DNA of 64,000 bases from the UHGV virus genome UHGV-0042229; one strand, written 5' to 3'. Below are positions 21,701 through 21,724 of the stretch, piece by piece. Under the pieces are notes generated by a model. The model was not told the origin of the DNA and searched no databases. It saw nothing but the letters and a program-made list of their open reading frames with translations. The position numbers and the translations under genes were made by a program. Position 1 is the first letter of the stretch; every line of letters starts with the position of its first letter. Origin of the DNA: a virus.

Positions 21701-21724
21701 TCAACAAATGACTAGCGGTAGAAT
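21701..21724 (+). promoter_or_regulatory. Late-promoter-like motif upstream of the baseplate operon
   Basis: tcaacaaatgac-tagcgg-TAGAAT; -10 lies 30 nt upstream of the ATG at 21754. Confidence 0.5.

Follow-up and report, generated by a model that had tools for sequence, protein, structure and literature searches.

The four sites that share a late-promoter-like motif in the window, by which we mean the whole 64,000-nt stretch of DNA analysed here, are almost certainly the late promoters LP26, LP23, LPsit and LPpac of the P1 phage family, which have already been catalogued and which depend on the activator Lpa. These late promoters are not new, being annotated in the reference genome of P1 (AF234172.1), and their recognition in the window is an ordinary re-discovery. 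It carries little weight as a discovery, and its practical use lies in annotation: many P1-like phage-plasmids carry resistance genes, and automated records of this group show the late promoter regions as plain intergenic DNA.

Identity of the sites and their relation to P1

The window is a P1-like phage-plasmid. The region around the first site (20500-23500) was 98-99% identical to P1 and likewise to the close relatives P7, RCS47 and SJ46. The window runs antiparallel to the P1 record and covers the span from cre/lox back via c1, pacBA, lpa, the tail genes, the replication and partition genes and the head genes to the tail-fibre gene S. All four strings quoted in the earlier note were verified at their coordinates and strands, namely TCAACAAATGACTAGCGGTAGAAT at 21701-21724, TCAACAAGTGACTTTCAATAAAAT at 42891-42914, TCACAAATGACAACTCGTAGAAT at 53839-53861 and, on the minus strand, TGACATGTGACTTTCGTTACCCT at 6978-6956, and they do share TGAC, six nucleotides and TANNNT. 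After registration of the window with the record, the coordinates of the -22 box and of the -10 element were identical to those of the annotated P1 late promoters at all four sites (Table 1), and lpa itself is present in the window, which supports the proposal that these are Lpa-dependent late promoters. By P1 annotation, the sites precede structural or packaging operons as had been supposed, with functions in tail and baseplate, head and sheath, tail tube, and packaging (pacA-pacB). The distance to the first gene, proposed as about 30 nt, is not uniform; counted from the end of the -10 element to the start codon, it is 29 nt for gene 26, 51 nt for gene 23, 31 nt for pmgC and 35 nt for pacA.

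Table 1 Late promoters, their operons and the lpa control region in the window.
Feature	Position	Strand	Composition	Annotation or remark
LP26	21702-21724	+	CAAC 21702-21705; box AAATGACTA 21706-21714; spacer 21715-18; -10 TAGAAT 21719-21724	annotated in P1 as 'late promoter LP26'
LP26 operon	21754-26505		genes 26-25-7-24-6-5	tail/baseplate
LPpmgL	21696-21714	-	LP26 box 21706-21714 on the other strand; -10 ATTATT 21701-21696	annotated in P1 as 'late promoter LPpmgL'
LP23	42892-42914	+	CAAC; perfect box AAGTGACTT 42896-42904; -10 TAAAAT 42909-42914	annotated in P1 as 'predicted late promoter LP23'
LP23 operon			23-22-21-pmgG-bplB	23-22-21, head/sheath; gene 23 start is TTG at 42966
LPsit	53839-53861	+	TCAC; box AAATGACAA 53843-53851; -10 TAGAAT 53856-53861	annotated in P1 as 'late promoter LPsit'
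LPsit operon	53893-62073		pmgC-tub-pmgB-sit-pmgA-bplA-16	tail-tube
LPpac	6956-6978	-	TGAC 6978-6975; box ATGTGACTT 6974-6966; -10 TACCCT 6961-6956	annotated in P1 as 'late promoter LPpac'
LPpac operon	6920-4243	-	pacA-pacB	
LPs	62099-62121	+	TGAC; box AAGTTACTT 62103-62111; spacer atct; -10 TACAAT 62116-62121	annotated in P1 as 'late promoter LPs'
LPs operon			R-S-U	tail-fibre; R start 62152
lpa (gene 10)	7006-7458	-		late promoter activator; 150/150 aa identical to P1 Lpa
Olpa/Plpa	7504-7545	-	C1 operator Olpa 7545-7529 overlapping sigma-70 Plpa (-35 7531-7526, -10 7509-7504)	

The list of four turned out to be incomplete, as LPs and LPpmgL also lie in the window, which brings it to six of the eleven late promoters of P1. 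LPs had been overlooked because it carries TTAC in place of TGAC. LPpmgL and LP26 form a divergent pair, and the '-22 region of LPpmgL' in the record has the same coordinates as the -22 region of LP26. Late promoters annotated in AF234172.1 (LPmat, LPpro, LPlyz, LPdar, LPs, LPsit, LP23, LP26, LPpmgL, LPhot and LPpac) agree in number with the 11 described for P1 in the literature, which share a conserved 9-bp inverted repeat as the binding site for Lpa (PMC10695390). The experimental status of each P1 late promoter is given here after GenBank notes and secondary citations. The primary experiments reportedly came from the Arber/Lehnherr laboratory in 1989-1992, and the P1 genome paper is that of Lobocka et al. 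2004. A search of the literature for a genome-wide map of P1 5' ends gave only ordinary RNA-seq without start-site resolution (PMC8201110).

The late promoters of the window are like those of P1 in their positions, downstream operons, architecture and Lpa. LP26, LP23 and LPpac are identical to P1 over the box, the spacer and the -10 element, whereas LPsit has one change in its box (AAATGACTA in P1 and AAATGACAA in the window, T-to-A) and its upstream DNA is replaced up to the box. The -10 element of LPpmgL reads ATTATT in the window and AATATT in P1. LPhot, present in P1, is missing from the window because a type I restriction-modification cassette replaces the genes from pmgT to humD.

This cassette (window 9479-15726, ~6.2 kb) stands in place of P1 84482-87970, which includes hot and LPhot, and encodes hsdS (424 aa), an EcoR124-like hsdR (1058 aa) and an hsdM in two parts, whose ORFs (9580-10374 and 10371-11141) point to a frameshift or a pseudogene. 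An insertion between c1 and pacB that P1 does not have (2537-4243) contains an antirepressor-like gene (ANT/KilAC and ORF6N; 2570-3685, minus), with 87% identity to P1 ant1 over part of its length, along with a gene of the Ash family (3682-4131, minus). Other genes, those for a DUF5384 protein (53273-53812) and a weakly TraT-like ORF (52748-53269), were located at 52464-53841 instead of the P1 sim (superimmunity) region; on its right-hand side this replacement ends 2 nt short of the LPsit -22 box, and other relatives carry different DNA at the same joining point. Homology to P1 also breaks after bplB, at 48327-49021, where the P1 pmgF region appears to be replaced or absent.

Architecture and non-random occurrence of the motif

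A common plan was found at the four sites, consisting of a 9-bp '-22 box' that resembles the inverted-repeat consensus AAGTGACTT, a spacer of exactly 4 nt and a TANNNT -10 hexamer. Aligned P1 promoters with standard spacing (n=10) gave the consensus (Y)(R)AC AAGTGACTT nnnn TAnnnT; the eleventh, LPhot, has a 9-nt spacer. The dinucleotide 'AC' directly precedes the box in eight of nine canonical P1 sites and, at 1.3-1.6 bits, is as informative as the core of the box; the best-conserved part of the promoters is the block at -17 to -29, with 1.1-1.7 bits per position. The 5' extension that had been given to the motif (CAAC, TGAC) was justified, but its 3' end fell two conserved nucleotides short (ACTT/ACTA), and the 1-nt gap introduced for the third site, LPsit, is not needed, as the box-aligned upstream bases there are TCAC instead of CAAC.

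The strict core ACAWRTGAC-N6-TANNNT was observed five times in the window versus 0.03 times expected from dinucleotide shuffles, and none of 100 shuffles reached five. This pattern was defined post hoc, from sites already seen, and two independent matrix checks were therefore performed. In the first, LPmat, LPpro, LPlyz and LPdar, which are P1 late promoters outside the window, were the sole source of a weight matrix, and its scan over the window ranked LPpac (24.3), LPs (24.1), LP23 (22.1), a site internal to gene 7 (19.8) and LP26 (16.4) as the first five, with a null maximum of 14.3 on average and 17.6 at most. In the reverse direction, a matrix from the four sites was scanned over P1 outside the window and returned LPpro, LPmat and LPlyz as its top three matches and LPdar as its fifth. 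Both cross-checks therefore support that the shared motif is real and non-random. The LPsit box of the window, with three mismatches to the consensus, is the weakest of the four, and the independent matrix scored this promoter at 11.5, within the null, so that its assignment rests on orthology and on conservation in JK004-like phages, not on motif strength.

It is very improbable that the sites are constitutive or C1-controlled sigma-70 promoters that resemble one another by chance and have no dedicated activator. Their -10 elements are good ones, matching TATAAT at five of six positions in LP26, LP23, LPsit and LPs, the P1 record predicts a sigma-70 promoter 'P1 23' overlapping LP23 as well as P1pmgC-P3pmgC upstream of LPsit, and several Lpa-controlled genes have sigma-70 promoters too (PMC8201110). 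However, all six late promoters of the window have only 0-2 of six matches to TTGACA at spacers of 16-18 nt, so that the TTGACA-like hexamer required of the standard sigma-70 (-35/-10) class is lacking, and no sigma-70-type promoter was called around LPsit. The best conservation, moreover, falls on the block at -17 to -29, although sigma-70 has no sequence-specific requirement there. The excess of strict-core matches and the retention of the block in Cronobacter phage JK004, where the flanks are randomised (see below), also speak against such promoters.

Still harder to believe is that the block is the site of another protein (C1 repressor, IHF or ParB) or a functionless relic of duplication. 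Other sites do crowd these regions: upstream of the LP26 box, at 25 bp, is the C1 operator O26, and upstream of LP23, at about 70 bp, is parS. The annotated C1 operators (e.g., Olpa), ParB sites and IHF sites are, however, features in their own right and differ in sequence. The C1 operator consensus is a 17-bp asymmetric site like ATTGCTCTAATAAATTT; operators of this class were not found at the late promoters, from which O26 and Olpa are distinct in position and sequence. In P1, the window and JK004, the block is always 4 nt from the -10 element and oriented toward a late operon, and a relic is at odds with the difference in identity between sites and flanks in JK004 that is described in the next section.

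Conservation in relatives of P1

The reading of the sites as Lpa-dependent late promoters was examined in JK004, whose Lpa is 67% identical and whose nucleotide sequence is ~71% identical where it can be aligned. JK004 and related IMG/VR contigs have the box, the spacing and the -10 element as in the window before orthologous operons; the JK004 boxes differ by one to three bases each, and its record lists all genes as 'hypothetical' and marks no promoters. With the P1 matrix, the motif was found upstream of the JK004 orthologs of R, 23, 26, pacA, prt, lyz, pmgC and probably mat, with six sites scoring 20-26 and LPlyz and LPsit scoring 16.8 and 16.7, versus a null maximum of 17.1. The rule of a box, 4 nt and TANNNT carries over cleanly to relatives such as this one. 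Ungapped comparisons between the window and JK004 showed 70-96% identity in the 23-nt sites but 18-38%, which is about random, in the 50 nt upstream (five annotated promoters); for LP23 the two values are 96% and 34%. Among metagenomic and isolate contigs, LPpac was invariant in the 78 IMG/VR contigs carrying lpa, with varying flanks, and the search of viral contigs for Lpa yielded only copies that are 99-100% identical.

LPsit provides a further comparison, as homology to P1 begins there at 53841, 2 nt before the box. The window, P1, JK004 and three other types of contig each have unrelated DNA upstream of it, and the junction is always located at the 'AC' before the box. Such varied upstream DNA amounts to a natural deletion series and therefore places the upstream limit of the LPsit promoter near -27. 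At the corresponding place, JK004 and its relatives carry A[C/T]ATGACAA, and the box form ending in ATGACAA was observed in JK004 and four IMG/VR relatives with unrelated upstream DNA. The box and the hairpin described below were both missing upstream of two more distant PmgC relatives (58-59% identity).

These comparisons bear on a third alternative, which we regard as unlikely: LPpac and LP26 would be true Lpa promoters, and LP23, the degenerate LPsit or both would resemble them but have little or no activity, so that transcription of their operons would come from another source. The record lists LP23 only as 'predicted', and the LPsit of the window combines its low score under the independent matrix with the T-to-A change in the box. 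Against this, LP23 has a perfect consensus box and is 96% identical in JK004, the ATGACAA form of the LPsit box is carried by the JK004 clade despite unrelated upstream DNA, and the matrix scans show no alternative late promoter upstream of these essential structural operons.

In phage D6 (MF356679.1), an Lpa-like activator gene is located beside pacA, and its product is 31% identical to P1 Lpa. The P1 matrix gave one strong match only in this genome (71092-71114). The literature searched contained no report of a separate D6 box or of its co-variation with the activator, and we found such a box, AAATCACAAACTGA (at most one mismatch), at 38122, 25228, 31518 and 72107 (all minus), where it precedes the R, prt, lydA and mat operons. 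The D6 box has in common with the P1 box the orthologous late operons that it precedes and an ACAA..TGA core, but differs from it in sequence and register, which suggests that the activator and the box have co-varied. Because lpa overlaps pacA in D6, there is no intergenic promoter of the LPpac type.

Control by Lpa and additional features

The lpa gene is located directly upstream of LPpac, and the Olpa/Plpa sequence, with Olpa reading ATTGCTCTAATGTATTG, is identical to the stretch annotated in P1. With both lpa and Olpa/Plpa identical, the cascade in which C1 represses lpa and Lpa activates the late promoters is therefore intact in this element. P1 late genes are dependent on Lpa (PMC8198154; PMC8201110), a sequence-specific DNA-binding activator that is thought to contact E. 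coli SspA directly, SspA being an RNA polymerase-bound co-activator with no late-promoter DNA binding of its own (PMC1891329). SspA is needed for the activation of P1 late genes; structurally, it links region 4 of sigma-70 to the beta' zinc-binding domain with no DNA contact (PMC7515715). What sets the P1 family apart is that its box overlaps the spacer at -22 and that host SspA serves as the co-activator (PMC1891329).

The most likely working model, based on this literature, is as follows. In the lysogen, the C1 repressor on Olpa would keep lpa silent. Upon induction or infection, Lpa would be made and would bind the box centred near -22. The -10 element would be usable by the host sigma-70 RNA polymerase, and the box stands where a -35 element is missing, so that recruitment or stabilisation of the SspA-containing holoenzyme by Lpa at -22 may substitute for the absent -35 contact. 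Promoters that are otherwise dead would then fire, and the packaging, head, tail and tail-fibre operons would be turned on together. Lpa binding, the dependence on SspA and the late timing are taken here from the literature; the sequence identity, the control of lpa by C1, the lack of a -35 element, the enrichment and the conservation come from the present analysis.

Lpa is a textbook case of positive control of phage late genes. Activator-dependent phage promoters without a -35 element also include the T4 middle (MotA/AsiA) and T4 late (gp55/gp33) promoters and those of P2/P4 (Ogr/Delta) and Mu (C). These systems have the same logic as the P1 late promoters, in which a usable -10 element is present, a phage factor supplies the upstream contact and structural genes are expressed late, but they differ in their proteins, box sequences and positions.

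Two additional sites were considered. A late-promoter-like candidate (CAAC AAGTGACTG gtga TAACCT) was located at 23407-23429 (+), inside gene 7 (23362-24090) at codons 16-23. It is the fifth strict-core match, scores 19.8-21.7 in the matrix scans, more than the largest null value for the independent matrix, and is oriented with the 26-25-7-24-6-5 operon; the same sequence is present in P1, where it is not annotated as a late promoter. We do not claim it as a promoter, since its partial retention in JK004 is explicable by a conserved peptide, Q-(V/M)-T-G-D. The second, weak site (TAAC AAAGGACTT caca GATAAT), at 37002-37024 (+) upstream of ppfA (37044-37466), is the predicted sigma-70 promoter P1ppfA in the P1 annotation. 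Its score of 13-14 is in the random range for the window, and the orthologous place in JK004 holds TGAC AAATGACCT ggcg GAAAAT, which scored 17.9. This site could be a twelfth late promoter, but we do not claim it as one, since the coding sequence beside it is itself 58% identical to JK004 and the 70% of the site does not clearly exceed this.

A 12-bp perfect inverted repeat was observed at 53852-53886 (+), with the arms CTCGTAGAATCT, which contains the LPsit -10 element, and AGATTCTACGAG, which abuts and in part covers the pmgC Shine-Dalgarno sequence GAGG. The predicted RNA fold of 53835-53900 had an energy of -24.3 kcal/mol (z = -6.0), and that of the segment from the LPsit promoter to the start codon -20.8 kcal/mol (z = -6.9). 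The stem is also present in P1 and, with compensating changes (TAGAAT/ATTCTA to TAAAAT/ATTTTA in JK004), in JK004-like phages. A hairpin linking promoter and ribosome-binding site is not a general property of late promoters: only LPsit in the window, P1 and JK004 (z of -5.5 to -6.9) and the JK004 LPs, which has a similar 14-bp stem (z = -3.8), stand out, and the other late promoters had z of -2.3 to +1.3. An intrinsic terminator is unlikely at this position, where nothing terminator-like was called and no T-run was found. The late transcript would start inside the loop, and the stem could therefore form only in read-through RNA. Read-through mRNA from upstream would fold and hide the pmgC ribosome-binding site, and mRNA begun at LPsit would stay translatable; if so, translation of pmgC would depend on which promoter made the mRNA. 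It is rather doubtful that the promoter set is richer than the catalogue in both these respects, with a putative Lpa promoter inside gene 7 boosting 24-6-5 and the LPsit hairpin acting as a translation filter.

The 'AC' before the box, the recombination junction at the edge of LPsit, the variant box of D6 and the LPsit hairpin are refinements for specialists in P1 transcription only. Contigs also differed in how many TTGA repeats they carry in the stretch from the lpa stop codon to LPpac (window ~6985-7005, minus), with TTGATTGC in most and TTGATTGATTGATTGATTGC in one, next to an invariant promoter.
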